Assembly (NCBI GenBank): GCA_963840455.1
Contig: CAWIYV010000009.1
Coordinates: 352,001-416,000, forward strand
From: Nitrospirota bacterium
GTDB taxonomy: Bacteria > Nitrospirota > UBA9217
Reading direction: 5' to 3'
Length of the DNA: 64,000 bases
Positions 10,446-40,736 of this stretch are shown piece by piece. Within the stretch, counting starts at the first letter, position 1. Every line of letters begins with the position of its first letter. A program made the translations under genes and the position numbers. The notes under the pieces are model-generated. The model was not told where the DNA came from. It ran no database searches and saw only the letters and a program-made list of their open reading frames with translations.

Positions 10446-11354
10446 ATGGAAGACCACAAGCTGAGAGTTTTCTGCGCAGTTGCCGAGACGAAGAGCTTCT
10501 CAAAGGCTTCGGAGCTCATCCACCTCACGCAGCCTGCAGTGAGCCTGCAGATCCAGGCCATGGAAGAGCTCTACGAGACGCGCCTTTTCGACCGTTCCGG
10601 AAACACGATCAACCTCACGCCCGCGGGCGAGATCCTGTACAAGCGAGCCAAGGAGATCCTGGCGCTCTATTCCGAGGCCCAGCAGAACATCAGCGAGATC
10701 ACCGGCGCCATCAAAGGATCGCTCTCCATCGGCGCCAGCTCCACCATCGGCAACTACCTCCTCCCGCACATCATTTCCGCGTTCAAGAAGAAGGTGCCCC
10801 AGGTCAACATCTCCCTGGTGGTGGGCAACACGAAGACCATCACGGAAAAGCTGAACGCGGGCGAGATCGACATCGCCCTGGTGGAAGGGGACGTGAGCAA
10901 GCAGCGGTTCTCGGTGGAGACGCTGCTCTCCGACGAACTGGTGGTGATCATGTCGCCTGCCCACCCTTGGGCGGAGCGCAGGAACCTCCCGGCCATCGAA
11001 CTGACCAAGGAGCCGCTTATCATGCGCGAGGAGGGCTCAGGCACGCGCCAGATCATCCTGAAGCACCTGGAGGAGCATGGTCTCAAGCTCGACCAGCTCA
11101 AGATAACCCTCGTTATGGGAAGTACCGAGGCGATCAAGGGCGCGGTGGAGGAAGGGACTGGCGTGTCCATCATGTCGGGCTGGGCCGTCCGCAAGTGGCT
11201 CAAGCTGGGGCTCCTCAAGGCCGCCACGTTCAAGGACCTCAAGTTCCACCGGAACTTCAGCATCATCTCACCCAAGCGCAACTACAGCACCCACACCGCA
11301 AGGGAGTTCCTGAACTTCCTGAAGGTCTTCCCGATCAAATCCCCGCTGTCCTGA
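10446..11354 (+). CDS. LysR family regulator (CysL/selenium-metabolism-associated type)
   Basis: HTH SFSKASELIHLTQPAVS; SIGASSTIGNY; REEGSGTR. Confidence 0.9.
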   Translation: MEDHKLRVFCAVAETKSFSKASELIHLTQPAVSLQIQAMEELYETRLFDRSGNTINLTPAGEILYKRAKEILALYSEAQQNISEITGAIKGSLSIGASSTIGNYLLPHIISAFKKKVPQVNISLVVGNTKTITEKLNAGEIDIALVEGDVSKQRFSVETLLSDELVVIMSPAHPWAERRNLPAIELTKEPLIMREEGSGTRQIILKHLEEHGLKLDQLKITLVMGSTEAIKGAVEEGTGVSIMSGWAVRKWLKLGLLKAATFKDLKFHRNFSIISPKRNYSTHTAREFLNFLKVFPIKSPLS

Positions 11355-34370: not shown

Positions 34371-35261
34371 ATGGACCTCCATCAGATCGAGATATTCTGC
34401 GCCATCGTCCGACACCAGAGCTTCTCCCGCGCCGCCGAAACGCTCTTCCTCACTCAGCCGACGGTGAGCGGCCACATGAAGAACCTCGAGGCCGAGCTTG
34501 GCGTGAAGCTGCTCGACCGCTTGGGCAAGCGGGCCATCCCCACCGAAGCGGGCGATATCCTCTTCCGGCACGGCACGCGGCTGCTCGAAGAGCGTGACCG
34601 GGCAAAGCAGGAGATCGAGCAGCTCACCGGCCGGATCAGCGGCGTCCTGACCATCGGCGGGAGCACCATCCCCGGCGCCTACCTGCTGCCGCCGCTCATC
34701 GGTACGTTCAAGAAGAAGAACCCGGGCATCTCGGTCCATCTGAGCATTGACGACACTGCGAAGATCACCGAGGCCGTTCTGGCCGGCAGCATCCGCATCG
34801 GTGTCGTCGGAGCCCGGCTCTCGGACCCGCAGCTCGAGGTCCATCCTTTTGAGTCCGACGAACTGGTCATCGCGGTGCCCGCACGCCATCCCTGGGCCAG
34901 GAAACGGACGGTCGCACCGCGGGAACTGAAGGGACAGCCATTCATCCTGCGCGAGCAGGGCTCGGGCACCCGCAAGATCATGGAGGACCGCCTGGAGAAG
35001 GCGGGCGTCTCGATCGCCGACCTTGCCATCGAGGCCGTCGTCGGGAGCAGCGACGCGGTCCGGCAGGCGGTCAAGGCCGGGCTCGGCATTTCGATCCTGT
35101 CCCTCCGCGCCCTTGCCGATGACATCGAGGCGGGCCGCCTCGCCGCGGTCCGTGTCGCGGGCGTCAGGATGGAACGGCACTTCTACGTAATCCTGCTCAA
35201 GGGCAGGGCTCGCTCGCCCCTCTCCAAGGCGTTCCTCGATTTCATCCTCAAAAAGGTCTGA
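34371..35261 (+). CDS. Selenium-metabolism-associated LysR family regulator
   Basis: HTH SFSRAAETLFLTQPTVSGH; IGGSTIPGAY; REQGSGTR. Confidence 0.88.
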   Translation: MDLHQIEIFCAIVRHQSFSRAAETLFLTQPTVSGHMKNLEAELGVKLLDRLGKRAIPTEAGDILFRHGTRLLEERDRAKQEIEQLTGRISGVLTIGGSTIPGAYLLPPLIGTFKKKNPGISVHLSIDDTAKITEAVLAGSIRIGVVGARLSDPQLEVHPFESDELVIAVPARHPWARKRTVAPRELKGQPFILREQGSGTRKIMEDRLEKAGVSIADLAIEAVVGSSDAVRQAVKAGLGISILSLRALADDIEAGRLAAVRVAGVRMERHFYVILLKGRARSPLSKAFLDFILKKV

Positions 35262-35301
35262 TAGCCGCTTCCGAACAGCCGTTGCCGCCCTGTTCCACTC
35301 G

Positions 35302-35377
35302 ATCACTCTTTCCAATCCGATCTTCCTGTCCTCATCAGTATTAGCGATTTGACTCCCCCCAGATGCTCCCTTAAGAT
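35302..35377 (+). promoter_or_regulatory. sigma70 promoter with two LysR-type boxes
   Basis: TTGACT(35349)-N17-TAAGAT(35372); ATC-N9-GAT at 35334-35348 abutting -35; ATC-N9-AAT at 35302-35316. Confidence 0.6.
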
Positions 35378-35412
35378 GGCCCCGGTACCAGCTCCATCTT
35401 CGGAGGTCAAGC

Positions 35413-36156
35413 ATGCAATTCGCGCGAAAACTGCTCTTCATCGCACTGTTCATATCGGTTTTTGTTCCCGTCACGACGCCCTCGGCAGAAAAGGAGTTCC
35501 GCGTCATCGCGACCGAGGAGCTCAAGGCTATGCTGGACGGGAAGAAGGACTTCGTCCTCGTGGACACGCGCACGGCCGAAGAGTATTAGGAGGCGCACAT
35601 CAAGGGAGCGATGAGCATCCCGGAAAAGAGCTTCGAGAACCAGCTCGCCCTTCTGCCGGCGGACAAGAACGCCCTGATCGTGCTGTACTGCAACGGCGTC
35701 AAGTGCGGCAAGAGCAGGAAGTCGGCAAAGAAGGCCGAGGCAGCAGGGTACATGAACCTGGTCATCTACGCCGAGGGATTCCCTGTCTGGGAGGAAAAGG
35801 GCTTTGCCATCGTTGCCGGGCCGGAGCACGCGAAGAAGATCGAGACCGCGAAGGTGAAGACCTACCGAGCTCAAGCAGCTCCTGGATACGAAGTAGCGCG
35901 AACATCGTGATCGTGGACGTACGGGACGAGGCGGAGTTCAGGGAAGGGCACATCCCCACGTCGATCAACATCCCCGTCGAGACCTTCGCGCTCCGCTCCG
36001 AGGTCCTACCGAAGGAGAAAGAAGATCATCGTGTACTGCAACACCGGCGGCAGGAGCTACAACGCCTACCGGAAGCTGATGAAGCTCGCTTATCCGAGCA
36101 TCGCTCAGGCGACCTTTGCTGAGTGGAAGGAAGCGGGCATGCCCGTCGAGAAGTAG
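35413..36156 (+). pseudogene. Exported double-domain rhodanese (in-frame TAG at 35587 plus ~3 indels; pseudogene or sequencing errors)
   Basis: Signal peptide; LVDTRTAEEY*EAHIKGA; YCNGVKCGKS; second domain IVDVRDEAEFREGHIP..YCNTGGRS recoverable by frame shifts. Confidence 0.75.
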
Positions 36157-36174
36157 ACAGGGGAACGATCGTAG

Positions 36175-36701
36175 ATGTCCGACGAAATTTCATCGATCAG
36201 AAAGGTATATCGCGATCCCTCTTCGATCGGACCCTGGGAGAGGTGCGTTCCCGAGGGCGGCTAGGCACCGTGGTAGCCGGAAAGGCCGATGCATTTAATC
36301 GGGTCCTCACCGGCCGCACCAGCGGCCAGGGACGGGACAGGTTCCGCTTCACCCGGAAGGGGGAGTATCGCATCAAGAACTGCCGGAAAGTGGACCTTGG
36401 ATGCGGCTACCGCATTGTCTGCATCCAGAAGGATCACCGTCTCGTCCTGCTGTTCATCGGCACGCACGACGACTGTTTCCGGTGGATCGAGCGTCACCGT
36501 ACGGCAGAGTATGACCTTGACGGCGTGCCCGAGGAGGCATGGACGGCCGTTATCGCCGATCGTCCGGCCGAGCGGCCGCGCCGGGAATTGGAGCACGACG
36601 AGGAGTGTCTTGCCGAGGAATATGAAGAGTCGCTCATGGACAAGATCGATGACGGGGTCCTGCGGAAAGTATTCGCCGGCATCGTCAATGGACGAACGTG
36701 A
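36175..36701 (+). CDS. Hypothetical protein with RelE/YafQ-like motif (likely 1-nt indel near 36218)
   Basis: KVDLGCGYRIV..LLFIGTHDDCFRW; ATG 36175 gives MSDEISSIRKVYRDP, which joins the main frame if a C is added to the CCC run. Confidence 0.55.
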
Positions 36702-36755
36702 TCAAGGAACGGTAACGATGAGCGAACGAAAATTTGCTTGAAAGGAGATCAGACC

Positions 36756-37388
36756 ATGAAACATACATTCACGCTGGGGGCGAGCACCATCCCGGGAGAG
36801 TTCATCATTCCCCGGCTGCTGTCAGCCATGATCAAGCACCTGCCGGAGATCGAGCTCAAGGTGGAGATCTCGGACAGCCTGAAGGTGTTTGAGGGGGTGC
36901 GGAAAGGACAGCACGAGATCGGAATTATCGGGACGCGGTTCGATTCGCCGGAGGTCGACTTCGCGGTCATGGTCAAGGACGACCGGCTGGTGCTGATCAC
37001 ACCGAAGAACCATCCGCTTGCAGCGAAACAAAACGTAGCCTTGAGCGACCTCAAAGGTCAGAGCTTCGTCACCCGGGAAAAGGGCTCGGGGACGCGGGCG
37101 GCCTATGAGAAGGCGTTCAAGGACGCGGGGCTCGCGCTAGCGGACCTGAACACGGTCGCCGAGGTCGGTACCACCGAAGGGGTCATCCAGGCTGTCGAGG
37201 GCGGCGCGGGGATCGCCATTGTTTCGGAGCTGGCGGCGAAAGAGGCCATCGAGCTCGGGAAGATCAAGGCGTTGAACATTCCCCTGCTCAAGATGGTCCG
37301 GGATTTCTCGATCATTACCCGGAAAGGGACAGCGCTTTCGAAAGATGCATCGGAAGTGCTTGCCGTGATCAAGGCGGTCATGAAGTAA
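36756..37388 (+). CDS. LysR substrate-binding domain protein lacking HTH
   Basis: AAGGAG RBS; starts directly at TLGASTIPGEF; REKGSGTR; no HTH coding sequence upstream. Confidence 0.85.
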   Translation: MKHTFTLGASTIPGEFIIPRLLSAMIKHLPEIELKVEISDSLKVFEGVRKGQHEIGIIGTRFDSPEVDFAVMVKDDRLVLITPKNHPLAAKQNVALSDLKGQSFVTREKGSGTRAAYEKAFKDAGLALADLNTVAEVGTTEGVIQAVEGGAGIAIVSELAAKEAIELGKIKALNIPLLKMVRDFSIITRKGTALSKDASEVLAVIKAVMK

Positions 37389-37438
37389 CGTAGATACAGT
37401 TTGCTGAAGGAGCAGTGCTGTCAACGAGGAGACGTTAT

Positions 37439-37533
37439 GACTGGCTGTGTCGGCTGGCGCCGGCTGCAGGCTTCAATCCTGTAGGACTGCCGTGAAGGGC
37501 ATGTCATCGGTTCGATTCCGAAGTCAGTCTCCA
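37439..37533 (+). tRNA. Non-canonical tRNA-Sec-like tRNA, anticodon UCA, 8/4 fold, U73 (selC*/tRNA-ReC-like)
   Basis: Acceptor GACTGGCT/AGTCAGTC (8 bp); D-stem GTCGGC/GCCGGC + TGGC loop; AC stem TGCAGG/CCTGTA, loop CTTCAAT; long variable arm; T-stem TCGG/CCGA, loop TTCGATT; ends T-CCA. Confidence 0.85.
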
Positions 37534-37617
37534 AGTGAACGAACGACCAGCCAGGAATGCATTGTCGCAGAACGAACGAGCGGGGAGGCTCTTCGATCTC
37601 ATCTCAAGGAGGAGTAC

Positions 37618-38136
37618 ATGGAACGGGAGCATCGTGAAGAGAAGGATCGCGAGGAGCTGAGCAGGCAGGATTTCCTGAAGGTCGCGGGGATCGCCGGCCT
37701 CGGCATGGCTGGGTTGGGCGCCATGATGAGCGCGCCCGTGTCAGCGGAAGAGGCCAAGGAGGGGAAGAAGGGGAAGTATGTCATCGTCATTACCCACGGA
37801 GGCAACAATCCGAACCGTGCGATCTGGGCGCTCCTGATGGCGGAGACGATCCAGAAGAAGGGATTGGGCGATGTGCATGTCTGGATGACCATCGAAGGAG
37901 CCGACCTGAGCAAGAAGAGCGTTCCCGAGAAGATCGTTTCTCCTATATTCTCCAAGTTCGGCAATGCCATGGAGATCATGGACCGTGTGCGGAAGAACGG
38001 GTGCAAGTTCGGCGTCTGCCCTCCCTGCGCGGAGTATTTCAGCGCCAAGGGCGATGAGAAGTTCGACTGGGTGGAGCTGCAGGGCGGCGACTGGCTGATG
38101 AAGAATATCCAGGATGCCTGGGTGGTGTGGTTCTAG
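37618..38136 (+). CDS. DsrE-family protein with Tat-like signal peptide
   Basis: AAGGAGG RBS; SRQDFLK + hydrophobic + VSA cleavage site; VWMTIEGADL and VCPPC DsrE motifs. Confidence 0.75.
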   Translation: MEREHREEKDREELSRQDFLKVAGIAGLGMAGLGAMMSAPVSAEEAKEGKKGKYVIVITHGGNNPNRAIWALLMAETIQKKGLGDVHVWMTIEGADLSKKSVPEKIVSPIFSKFGNAMEIMDRVRKNGCKFGVCPPCAEYFSAKGDEKFDWVELQGGDWLMKNIQDAWVVWF

Positions 38137-38218
38137 CGGTATCATTTCGCAAGGGGGCCGGTCGTGTTTGCTGCGACTGGCCCTGATCGTTTAGAAGAAC
38201 GAGCAACGGAGGTCGGAC

Positions 38219-38632
38219 ATGCATGCGGAAGGACCGAGTACCGGCTGTGGAGCACATGCAAAAGGCGCCGAGATGAGAACGAGCGATGCGGGCTGGGCAA
38301 AGAGCCTGCTGCTGATCGTGGGATCGGATGTTCTGGGCAAGGAAGAGGCCATCGGAAAGGTCCTGATGAAGGGCTTCTTCGAGACGATGAAGGTCCACAA
38401 ACAGGTACCGCACACCATCTTCTTCCTGAACGCGGGAGTGAAGCTGACCACCACGAACGAAGAAACGGTACCGCTCCTCAAGGAGATTGAGGCCATGGGC
38501 GTCGAGATCTACACCTGCGGTACCTGCCTTAAATACTACAACCTTGAGCCCTCTCTCAAGGTCGGACATCGCGGTACGACCAATCATATTGTTGAGGGAC
38601 TGCAGGACTTCGGCAAGGTCGTGTGGATCTGA
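38219..38632 (+). CDS. YedF-related selenium-metabolism sulfurtransferase, DsrE-like domain only
   Basis: IGKVLMKGFF, IFFLNAGVKL, CGTCLKYY, KVG motifs; no TusA domain. Confidence 0.75.
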   Translation: MHAEGPSTGCGAHAKGAEMRTSDAGWAKSLLLIVGSDVLGKEEAIGKVLMKGFFETMKVHKQVPHTIFFLNAGVKLTTTNEETVPLLKEIEAMGVEIYTCGTCLKYYNLEPSLKVGHRGTTNHIVEGLQDFGKVVWI

Positions 38633-38826: not shown

Positions 38827-39318
38827 ATGAAGAAGTATTGGATCATCGGTTTAGTGCTGGTACTTGCGGCAGCAACAGCGGCATTCGCGCAGCCCTGGCA
38901 GGGATGGAAGAACTGCGGGGGCTGGTGCAAGGAAGAGGGGATGACGGGAGGGCCGGGCGGCGGGCAGGGAAGGATGTATGACCCCGCCAAAGCGGAGACG
39001 ATCAAGGGCGAGGTGACGGCGGTCGAGCAGATCGGCGGCGGCCGGAGGATGGGCCCGGGCGTGGGGCTGAAGCTCAAGACGGCAGCGGGCGAACAGTTCG
39101 TACATCTGGGGCCGCAGTGGTACATCGAACAGCAGGGAGAAATGCCGATCAAGGCAGGAGACACGGTCGAGGTGACGGGCGTGAAGGCCGCGCGCGGCGG
39201 CAAGGACTTCTTCATCGCCGGGATGGTTAAGAAAGGCGATGACGTTCTGAAGCTTCGCGATGAGACCGGCGTCCCCGCGTGGGCGGGATGGAGGCGGGGA
39301 GGGGTGGCACCGAAGTAG
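38827..39318 (+). CDS. Exported OB-fold protein (MamS/MamX-domain-like)
   Basis: Signal peptide; YDPAKAETIKGEV, VHLGPQWY, GDTVEVTG, LRDETGVPAW. Confidence 0.65.
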   Translation: MKKYWIIGLVLVLAAATAAFAQPWQGWKNCGGWCKEEGMTGGPGGGQGRMYDPAKAETIKGEVTAVEQIGGGRRMGPGVGLKLKTAAGEQFVHLGPQWYIEQQGEMPIKAGDTVEVTGVKAARGGKDFFIAGMVKKGDDVLKLRDETGVPAWAGWRRGGVAPK

Positions 39319-39365
39319 GAGCGAGCAGAAGCGCATTGTTTAAACCCTGAAAGCATACTGCGAGC

Positions 39366-39398
39366 GGCTGGCCCAGGATAACAGGGCCGGCCTTTTTT
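39366..39398 (+). terminator. Intrinsic terminator
   Basis: GGCTGGCCC...GGGCCGGCC followed by TTTTTT. Confidence 0.7.
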
Positions 39399-39476
39399 GT
39401 CCCTTCCGTACAAATCCCTTGACTCTTGTCCACCGTGCTTCTACAATGTCAGAACTTTCAGCGGCACGGGCGGGAC

Positions 39477-40109
39477 ATGGAACGGGACATGACGTACGCC
39501 GATGCCGTTACGGGCATCGAGAAATACCTTACGCGGGGCAAATTCGCCAAGGCCGATGTCTTCATCGCCCGCTACCGCGGCTTGCGGTTCATCGTAAAGG
39601 ACTTCGGGAAACGCGGTTTCTGGGAACGGAACCTCATCGGCCGCATCGTTATCGGCCGCGAGTCGCGGGCCTATAGGGCCCTTGCCGGGATCGAGGGATT
39701 GCCCGCACGCTTCAAGCGGCTCACGCCGTTCTCCCTTGCCATCGAGTATCTCGAAGGCAGGGACCTGGGCGGGGTCGAGCGGCATGAGATCGGCCCGGGG
39801 GTCATCCGCCAGTTCGAGCGGATCATTGACGATATCCATGACCGCGGCTGGGTCCACCTGGACCTCCAGCGGCGCTCCAACATCCTGCTGGTGAACGACC
39901 GGGTGTTCGTGGTCGACCTGGCCTCGGCGTTCCATCCCGGCGGCGTCCCGGTCATCGGCCGCTGGCTGGTGCGTCTCCTGGGGTTCGCCGACCGGCTGTC
40001 GCTCATCAAGATGAAGACGATCTTCGCGTCAGAGCTTCTTTCACCCAATGATCGGAAACTGATCAAGATGCGGAACCTTCTCATGCCGACGAAATGGTCC
40101 CCTGAGTAA
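39477..40109 (+). CDS. RIO/Kdo-like protein kinase-fold protein
   Basis: IVKDF, RE, HLDLQRRSNIL, VVDLA motifs. Confidence 0.7.
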   Translation: MERDMTYADAVTGIEKYLTRGKFAKADVFIARYRGLRFIVKDFGKRGFWERNLIGRIVIGRESRAYRALAGIEGLPARFKRLTPFSLAIEYLEGRDLGGVERHEIGPGVIRQFERIIDDIHDRGWVHLDLQRRSNILLVNDRVFVVDLASAFHPGGVPVIGRWLVRLLGFADRLSLIKMKTIFASELLSPNDRKLIKMRNLLMPTKWSPE

Positions 40110-40166
40110 CGTCAACCGCATAGGCGGTAGCGGATCACGTTGCAGTACACGACAAGGAGACGATCC

Positions 40167-40736
40167 ATGGCGGTCAAAGACACCCTGCAGTACAAACTGA
40201 CGAAGGTGACGGGAAAGACCGTGATGGCCGGTATTGTTGGGATCGTCATGTTCTTTCTGGCGAAGGGCAGGACCCTCGAACCGGCCTGGTTCATCCCGGG
40301 CGCCGCCATTACTCTGTTCGGCGAATGGCTCCGTCTCTGGGCCGCCGGCCACCTCCGCAAGAACAAGCAGCTTACGACGACGGGTCCCTACTCGTACGTG
40401 AAGAACCCCCTCTACATCGGCACACTGCTCATCACCGTGGGTTACAGCGCCATGGCGATGAACTATTGGATCATGGTCGCCGGCTTTGTCTGGTTCTTCA
40501 TCTATTATGCGCCGTACAAGAAGAAACAGGAGAACGAGAAGCTCATCGGCAGCTTCGGCGATGCCTGGATCGAGTTCGACAAGGCTGTGCCCGACTACCT
40601 CCCGCGCCTGTCGCCCTACCCCGGCAGGGGGACGAACCGCTGGAGCTGGGAGGTCGTGAAGGAGAACTCGGAGCACGAAACCGCCGTCGCGGTCTTCATC
40701 GGATTCGCTGTCATGTTCTATCTGCTGGTCCGGTAG
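40167..40736 (+). CDS. Isoprenylcysteine carboxyl methyltransferase/PEMT family membrane protein
   Basis: LTTTGPYSYVKNPLYIG motif, TM helices. Confidence 0.85.
   Translation: MAVKDTLQYKLTKVTGKTVMAGIVGIVMFFLAKGRTLEPAWFIPGAAITLFGEWLRLWAAGHLRKNKQLTTTGPYSYVKNPLYIGTLLITVGYSAMAMNYWIMVAGFVWFFIYYAPYKKKQENEKLIGSFGDAWIEFDKAVPDYLPRLSPYPGRGTNRWSWEVVKENSEHETAVAVFIGFAVMFYLLVR

Follow-up and report, generated by a model that had tools for sequence, protein, structure and literature searches.

The selC* genes encode cysteine (Cys) tRNAs that are defined, in passages of PMC5389517 and PMC13582414, by a shape like that of the selenocysteine (Sec) tRNA, tRNASec, and by U73, in the setting of a host with a selABCD set. 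According to the former paper, U73 is the main determinant for CysRS and G73 the determinant for SerRS; in the latter, a 2026 paper, such tRNAs bear the later name tRNAReC and are reported to decode UGA as Cys with SelB, while the partition between tRNASec and tRNAReC 'remains unclear'. Here we describe a tRNA of this kind in a window of 64,000 nucleotides (nt) from a Nitrospirota bacterium (G000:C9:352001-416000, part of a 4.03-Mb, 14-contig genome), where it lies downstream of LysR_Se, a selenium-associated LysR regulator. The tRNA kind itself is already in print: in work with Escherichia coli, tRNAReC puts Cys at selenocysteine codons, and a Sec-inserting derivative is said to have been put on record by Vargas-Rodriguez in 2018.

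A second set of described systems concerns the regulator. The relevant passages of PMC5322559 connect YedF and LysR_Se with the handling of selenium at large, detoxification being one of the roles proposed, and give the archaeal orthologues of LysR_Se the name HrsM. The HrsM of Methanococcus, of LysR type, represses Cys-isoform genes when selenium is adequate, as a passage of PMC11097638 has it.

Our best explanation of the locus, to which we give a probability of about 0.6 on the strength of sequence and synteny, is that tRNAReC is transcribed under LysR_Se along with a variable set of sulfur/selenium (S/Se)-carrier genes, LysR_Se setting the level of the tRNA by selenium (or S/Se) status. 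An earlier note on this DNA, made from the letters alone, had picked out seven elements as a candidate selenium/sulfur-status operon. All seven stand where it had placed them, on the + strand and closely spaced, with gaps between consecutive elements of 151, 18, 54, 50, 84 and 82 nt. Co-orientation, gaps of 18-151 nt and one upstream box promoter are what would be expected of a single operon. The features, with coordinates in the window unless a contig is named, and with lengths in amino acids (aa), are as follows; HTH is the helix-turn-helix.

34371-35261, +: LysR_Se, with HTH and effector domain (NF040786, 306.4 bits against a cut-off of 250; Pfam HTH_1 and LysR_substrate)
35334-35348, +: LysR-type dyad ATCAGTATTAGCGAT, ATC-N9-GAT, abutting the -35
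35349-35354 and 35372-35377, +: promoter from a promoter scan, with -35 TTGACT, a 17-nt spacer and -10 TAAGAT
35413-36156, +: pseudogene of an exported double rhodanese (signal peptide; Pfam Rhodanese matches on fragments)
36123-36701, + (open reading frame (ORF); true start ATG at 36175): gene of RelE/YafQ fold, from a family of ~175 aa
36756-37388, +: HTH-less LysR paralogue, 210 aa, intact (LysR_substrate, 140.7 bits; no HTH)
37439-37533, +: tRNAReC, or selC*-type tRNACys(UCA) (ARAGORN, as SeC/tca; RF01852, 52.9 bits; fold; sequence)
37618-38136, +: exported DsrE-like protein with an invariant CPPC motif (Pfam DsrE, 21.9 bits, just under the cut-off of 22.7)
38219-38632, +: TusA-less YedF-like protein with a CGTC motif (TIGR03527, 134.1 bits against a cut-off of 110, profile positions 81-194 only)
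C1:311722-311816: canonical selC with G73, scoring above the tRNA of the window as tRNA-Sec

The tRNA has an acceptor stem of 8 bp, a D stem of 6 bp with a 4-nt loop, an anticodon stem of 6 bp and a T stem of 4 bp; it has the 8/4 shape, a long variable arm and a UCA anticodon, and its discriminator, U73 (T in the DNA, at 37530), is followed by an encoded CCA. Its RF01852 score reaches the Rfam tRNA-Sec gathering score. When 20 UCA-type homologues are aligned, 95.9% of cells pair, and in 12 of the 31 pairs both partners have changed; these values are not attained by any of 500 shuffles, and slid structures pair in at most 51.5% of cells. U73 is present in all 20 of these homologues, as against G73 in 20/20 canonical selC genes. 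Elsewhere in the genome, selA and selB are found on contig C7 and selD on C14, with one match each over the cut-off for selB and cysS. By these profile matches selA, selB, selD and cysS are on contigs other than that of the unit, and so not adjacent to it, just as the earlier note had said. Because U73, the UCA anticodon and the 8/4 shape occur in a genome that has a canonical selC besides, and because tRNASec-like architecture coexists here with selC, selA, selB and selD, we assign the tRNA to the selC*/tRNAReC kind, so that the recoding tRNA first read from the letters holds good. Most likely, to judge from its sequence, it would be charged by the single CysRS and carried by the single SelB, inserting Cys at UGA codons with a selenocysteine insertion sequence (SECIS). 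With its single in-frame TGA, the selD gene (G000:C14:252661-253584) probably encodes a selenoprotein, and it is a possible target of Cys recoding.

Conservation of the arrangement was assessed by running RF01852 on 151 relatives and taking 40 regions around second matches. ARAGORN and inspection divided these into 23 long U73 tRNAs (18 UCA, 5 GCA), 3 canonical G73 tRNAs and 14 others, the last comprising six U73 tRNAReC-type genes missed by ARAGORN (three with a variable region of ~70 nt) and eight ordinary long-arm Ser/Leu tRNAs. The final set holds 32 loci, including the window, L021 and L028, from at least 12 genera, five families and one phylum. L021 is a contig of a Nitrospirae metagenome-assembled genome bearing the same locus, with a DsrE 94% identical to that of the window. 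Synteny was counted with tblastn at E <=1e-6 within ~6 kb of the tRNA, using query families checked by Pfam and NCBIfam on the window and L028. The counts per family are:

YedF DsrE domain: 20/32 loci, 14 of these with the TusA domain
LysR_Se: 19/32 loci, co-oriented and upstream of the tRNA
double rhodanese: 11/32 loci
RelE-fold protein: 8/32 loci
activase: 8/32 loci
HGD-D-type protein: 6/32 loci
HTH-less LysR: 5/32 loci
exported DsrE: 4/32 loci

At least one module gene is thus found at 24/32 tRNAReC-type loci, the box promoter at 22/32 and one or the other at 27/32, while selB and cysS each score 0/32 in the same tblastn searches. All but three of the module-gene matches are co-oriented with the tRNA. 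The same queries applied to canonical selC loci of the same genomes found module genes at 0/20. Conserved synteny, for which the earlier note had asked, is therefore present, in module genes and box alike and with none at the selC controls. Of the seven-gene arrangement, conservation extends only to LysR_Se, the box promoter and the tRNA, and the cargo differs even between members of the genus.

The promoter with LysR boxes that the earlier note had described proves both real and conserved. In the window the 21-mer made up of the dyad and the -35 is unique (1 match against 0.00 expected), and it is the sole match of its pattern in the genome. An identical 21-mer occurs downstream of LysR_Se in 5/5 loci of the genus to which the window belongs (g1), followed by 17 nt and then TAAGAT or TACAAT, and the gene that comes after it may be the rhodanese, the RelE-fold gene or a TusA-YedF: three first genes in one genus. 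In other genera the counterpart is an ATAG/ATCG-N7-CTAT dyad joined directly to TTTACA, with a TATAGT-like hexamer after it. These two box patterns account for the 22 loci, always upstream of the tRNA and on its strand; they match 0/20 canonical selC control loci and just once each in the whole 4.03-Mb genome, one match being the window site and the other, of boxB, lying inside an ORF. In five loci from four families (L094, L106, L111, L112 and L100) no other element separates the box from the tRNA, which begins 51-136 nt beyond the start of the box, and two of the five have no module gene nearby. As to the regulator itself, the gene in the window passes its NF040786 cut-off and has both Pfam domains, so that the selenium-associated LysR was correctly named; 8/8 adjacent LysRs checked pass the same cut-off, and the five checked genomes without LysR_Se at the tRNA locus all encode it elsewhere. 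A wider LysR_Se regulon does not emerge, the dyad with up to three mismatches giving 23 genome matches against ~20 expected. Two candidate further targets were rejected, the best extra dyad site (on C13) being at the end of an ORF and the boxB match lying within one.

Since LysR_Se, the box and the tRNA are the constant elements while the carrier genes come and go, we read the tRNA as the regulated product of the LysR_Se promoter. In this Nitrospirota family the tRNA gene would not stand alone but would be served by the promoter beside the LysR_Se gene, in which a LysR-type dyad and the -35 are fused, and it would travel with a variable cargo of YedF, double rhodanese, DsrE, HGD-D with activase, the YafQ-fold protein and the HTH-less LysR. 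LysR_Se may then adjust the amount of the Cys-recoding tRNA to selenium (or S/Se) status; if archaeal HrsM is a guide, a shortage of selenium would be met with Cys as a backup. The sequences themselves show the features of the tRNA, the synteny, the conserved box promoter and the gene lesions; we infer that the genes are co-transcribed, that LysR_Se binds, that the tRNA is charged with Cys and used by SelB, and that there is a dependence on selenium, with its sign.

Several points weigh against this reading. The fold energy of the tRNA, taken alone, is unremarkable (z = -1.82), and its UCA anticodon lacks G34, a CysRS identity element. A second cysS*, without the anticodon domain, was not found in the genome, which has one ordinary cysS only, and the one UCA-type selC* tested in print required a cysS*-type enzyme, according to a passage of PMC5389517. 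The promoter scan across the window is at chance level, with 2 found against 1.5 expected, and a crude scan of the window found no terminators. The loci that supplied the box patterns are also those in which the patterns were counted, and these loci come from related genomes that are not independent, so that the counts overstate the independent support. Neither box nor module genes are present at 5/32 loci. Two of the seven elements, the double rhodanese and the RelE/YafQ-fold gene, are broken, and the unit as it stands here may be on its way to losing function. Lastly, the coupling with LysR_Se is lineage-specific, belonging to Nitrospirota within our sample, since the Desulfobacterota loci carry a selB paralogue instead. 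From 150 Desulfobacterota genomes we took eight second-match loci among the matches listed (a further 135 were not shown); U73 is present in 8/8, a selB paralogue follows in 7/8, as published, and LysR_Se or YedF in 0/8 of these fetched loci.

A rival account would make the operon mainly a unit of selenium/sulfur stress or assimilation, built on YedF, rhodanese and DsrE and induced by excess selenium or reactive sulfur, with the tRNA riding along, for example to buffer SelB. The published tie of YedF and LysR_Se to general selenium handling and proposed detoxification (in the passages of PMC5322559) would suit such a unit, as would the locus L091, in which the box is followed by selD (352 bits), a 340-aa ORF and then the tRNA. 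We nevertheless hold it to be unlikely, since loci can do without the carrier genes, whereas the tRNA constantly accompanies the box and LysR_Se. Moreover, in the five loci where box and tRNA are neighbours the tRNA is, as predicted from the position of the box, the first transcribed element, and in the present genome the rhodanese is dead but the tRNA intact.

Coincidence within a variable island, in which a constitutive tRNA sits in a hypervariable spot (between pepA-LysR and a kinase-methyltransferase flank) that collects S/Se genes with no regulation in common, we regard as rather unlikely. It draws on the gene content between the conserved flanks, which differs in every g1 genome (the window, L021, L079, L080 and L081), and on the frequency of pseudogenes and fragments there. 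Yet the same gene families and the box recur in at least 12 genera of four families, in differing gene orders, and are found at none of the 20 canonical selC loci. The short distance of 51-136 nt from box to tRNA in five loci also tells against coincidence, as does the start of the tRNA 24-35 nt after the stop codon of YedF in several loci, a spacer too short to accommodate a promoter of its own unless within coding sequence.

Part of the unit has decayed in this genome, with the rhodanese and the YafQ-fold gene both broken and the YedF without TusA. The rhodanese has an in-frame TAG (35587-35589), where orthologues have Gln, and its frame changes 1->2->3->1 near 35860, 35890 and 36022; the active-site loops CNGVKCGKS and CNTGGRS are still readable, and the orthologue from the same genus, L079:4116-4853, is intact. 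The exported double rhodanese of the earlier note is accordingly there as a two-domain frame with a signal peptide and not as an intact gene. In the RelE-fold gene a one-base slip in a run of C at 36219 comes after 16 codons: residues 2-16 of the homologue P0122 align to 36175-36219 and residues 17-176 to 36219-36698, in another frame. A short way downstream (36240-36260) RSRGRLG replaces the RSLGGYG of the family, changing two nearly invariant glycines; to judge from the sequence, this looks like a +1/-1 indel pair a few codons apart. Assembly noise is unlikely to be the cause of the lesions, given that the neighbouring genes are intact: pepA (512 aa), LysR (296 aa), the HTH-less LysR, DsrE, a kinase-like gene, a methyltransferase and a 1206-aa histidine kinase are all free of them. 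With four lesions in the rhodanese, a frameshift and a locally scrambled stretch in the YafQ-fold gene, a YedF without TusA and no HGD-D gene found in this genome, the whole unit might be taken for a decaying remnant without present function. That is very unlikely, as all stems of the tRNA are preserved, the box promoter matches that of the relatives exactly, and LysR_Se, the HTH-less LysR, DsrE and the YedF-like protein are full length with the invariant residues of their families.

That the tRNA serves instead as a second tRNA for selenocysteine, charged with serine that is then converted to Sec, would fit its tRNASec architecture, its Rfam score and the ARAGORN label SeC, but is highly improbable given U73 throughout its homologues and G73 throughout canonical selC, the respective main determinants of CysRS and SerRS in the passage of PMC5389517.

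Our preferred reading, of a tRNAReC under the control of LysR_Se, can be carried a step further. LysR_Se may be a bacterial selenium-status switch for the meaning of UGA, with tRNAReC turned on from the box promoter so that the same selenoprotein genes would be read with Cys when selenium is short. The HTH-less LysR might then titrate the effector or poison LysR_Se oligomers, and the YafQ-fold protein might target messages stalled at UGA, acting in the A site of the ribosome. We offer this fuller version as tentative, and the roles given to the RelE-fold family and to the HTH-less LysR are guesses.

The remaining genes of the unit differ in how closely they follow the tRNA. The HTH-less LysR had been read from the letters as such and consists of an effector domain only, with no HTH_1 match and, upstream, neither room for an HTH nor a remnant of one; its best NCBIfam match is to positions 90-297 of NF040786, at 182 bits and so below the cut-off of 250. 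The family is genuine: nearly all of the 120 clusters listed (50-100% identity) have a length of 210-212 aa, and HTH_1 is absent from every one. It is found in only 6/151 relatives. The intact close copies (at least 84% identity) lie within 1.5 kb of tRNAReC in 4/4 cases and are more conserved than pepA within the genus; distant copies are not beside tRNAReC. In solved structures LysR effector domains dimerise.

The DsrE-like protein has 286 homologues, many with a precomputed PF02635 assignment, whose alignment gives the invariant residues. It has an N-terminal export signal with a hydrophobic core and an AxA site. This signal, given as Tat-type in the earlier note, is Tat-like: compared with the twin-arginine motif S/T-R-R-x-F-L-K it reads SRQDFLK, with a single Arg, and relatives have SRG, SKR or GKR. 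Taking DsrE as the anchor, only 2/29 loci have a long tRNA, and the exported DsrE is therefore not a constant partner. The Rfam gathering threshold misses tRNA-Sec in these 29 loci even for L021, where the tRNA is present, and ARAGORN with per-genome RF01852 was used instead. Nothing beyond the export signals speaks for the periplasmic trafficking of (poly)sulfide or selenide suggested by the earlier note, since the exported rhodanese is dead here and the exported DsrE is present in few of the loci.

The YedF-like protein passes its TIGR03527 cut-off with its C-terminal, DsrE-like half only, and the DsrE-domain description given to it was right; the TusA domain (CPxP) has no match anywhere in the window or genome. 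TusA-less YedF-like proteins (window 38219-38260; L089, L021) share an N-terminal G-x-C-G-x-H that full-length YedF does not have, which suggests, at the level of sequence, a distinct subfamily rather than a simple truncation. The DsrE, YedF-like and RelE-fold genes are each single-copy in the genome.

The RelE-fold family, with 111 homologues, was first noticed for a RelE-like motif. The protein has no Pfam or NCBIfam match, and a profile search of the PDB gives E 0.34, which is not significant. An AlphaFold2 model of the close homologue P0122 (predicted local distance difference test, pLDDT, 75) has HP0894, YafQ and RelE as its best PDB matches in Foldseek, with E from 3e-4 to 1e-2 and target template modelling (TM) scores of 0.65-0.68. 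A RelE-type alpha/beta fold is thus present, while a sequence-family match and an intact gene are not. Like the YafQ/RelE mRNA interferases, the family has this fold, and its C-terminal strand with G-[ST]-H-x-x-x-F aligns with HP0894 (in the same non-significant match, E 0.34). Unlike them, it is of ~175 aa with an extra C-terminal helical part, has no antitoxin gene in sight, lies in a selenium/tRNA cluster and is frameshifted here.

A number of other observations were made along the way. Three tRNAReC-like genes of 144-146 nt from one genus (L087:6001-6144; L090:6001-6144, - strand; L105:21-166, - strand) have GCA, U73, CCA and a variable region of ~70 nt, scoring 48-49 bits with RF01852 and going uncalled by ARAGORN; two of the three loci have rhodanese and TusA-YedF 3-4 kb downstream, co-oriented. 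In one genome a single contig carries both a canonical selC and a tRNAReC-type gene, with 18 kb between them (G058:C58:142780-142874 and 160627-160720), and a further tRNAReC copy is beside YedF on another. A 92-nt tRNA-Ile called by ARAGORN in L038 was rejected as false, the sequence being GC-rich and coding-like. Near tRNAReC in L091:4976-5998 and L097:1374-2378 is a secreted protein of 334-340 aa with the stretch KGCGLGE...GGKC.DIH, placed between selD and the tRNA in L091 and without an NCBIfam match at E 1e-10. In one Desulfobacterota locus (L154:3919-8024) an HGD-D-type gene and its activase directly adjoin a GCA-type tRNAReC on its upstream side, with the selB paralogue after the tRNA; the HGD-D/activase pair also flanks tRNAReC in several Nitrospirota loci, so that the pairing occurs in two phyla. 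The right flank of the unit in the window (38827-40736) encodes a 163-aa secreted protein, a small Bud32/RIO-like kinase and an isoprenylcysteine-methyltransferase-like membrane protein; it is kept in the genus, while the content between it and LysR_Se is variable. A second LysR in the window (10446-11354, +), 38% identical to LysR_Se, adjoins a ComEC-like gene on the other strand and resembles the type found beside tRNAReC in other genera; it has no box motif near.

What is new here is the context, a known kind of tRNA joined to a conserved regulator-box promoter and a selenium-associated LysR. In a limited search we found no printed mention of tRNAReC coupled to LysR_Se, YedF or a box promoter, though Vargas-Rodriguez 2018 may show one; LysR, DsrE, YedF, SirA and TusA have no occurrence in the main text of PMC5389517, whose supplements may show such neighbourhoods. 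The coupling makes it directly testable when and why native hosts use tRNAReC, and the arrangement suggests how cells might choose between selenium and sulfur at UGA codons. It also opens a first way into the function of bacterial LysR_Se, of the HTH-less LysR family and of the unnamed YafQ-fold family. If the reading is true, this would be a rare case of a transcription factor controlling codon meaning through a dedicated tRNA.

Among described systems, selC*/tRNAReC (Mukai et al. 2017, PMC5389517; PMC13582414) is the same in its tRNASec-like 8-bp acceptor, long variable arm, U73 and UCA or GCA anticodon, in its place beside a complete selABCD set and in being reported from Nitrospirae/Thermodesulfovibrio among others; unlike the present locus, the passages of these texts concerned with it mention neither regulation of the gene nor LysR, YedF, DsrE or TusA neighbours. 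The deltaproteobacterial selC*-selB*(-cysS*) subtype, as described in PMC5389517, shares an 8/4 tRNACys mimicking tRNASec. It differs in that no second selB or cysS is found in this genome or near the 32 Nitrospirota loci, and the partner here is a regulator with its promoter where the subtype has a dedicated elongation factor or synthetase. The LysR_Se and YedF neighbourhoods of Lin et al. (2015; PMC5322559) agree in that both families adjoin selenium genes, and both models are passed here; the neighbours named in the relevant passages are selA, selB and selD, with no mention there of a tRNA partner, an HTH-less paralogue or a box promoter. Finally, HrsM is likewise a regulator of the LysR_Se group and decides on the Cys version of selenoproteins (in the passage of PMC11097638). 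Whereas HrsM controls duplicate Cys-isoform genes, and so swaps whole genes, the target proposed here is a tRNA that would re-read the same gene, which, if true, would make the bacterial locus a one-gene counterpart of the archaeal system.

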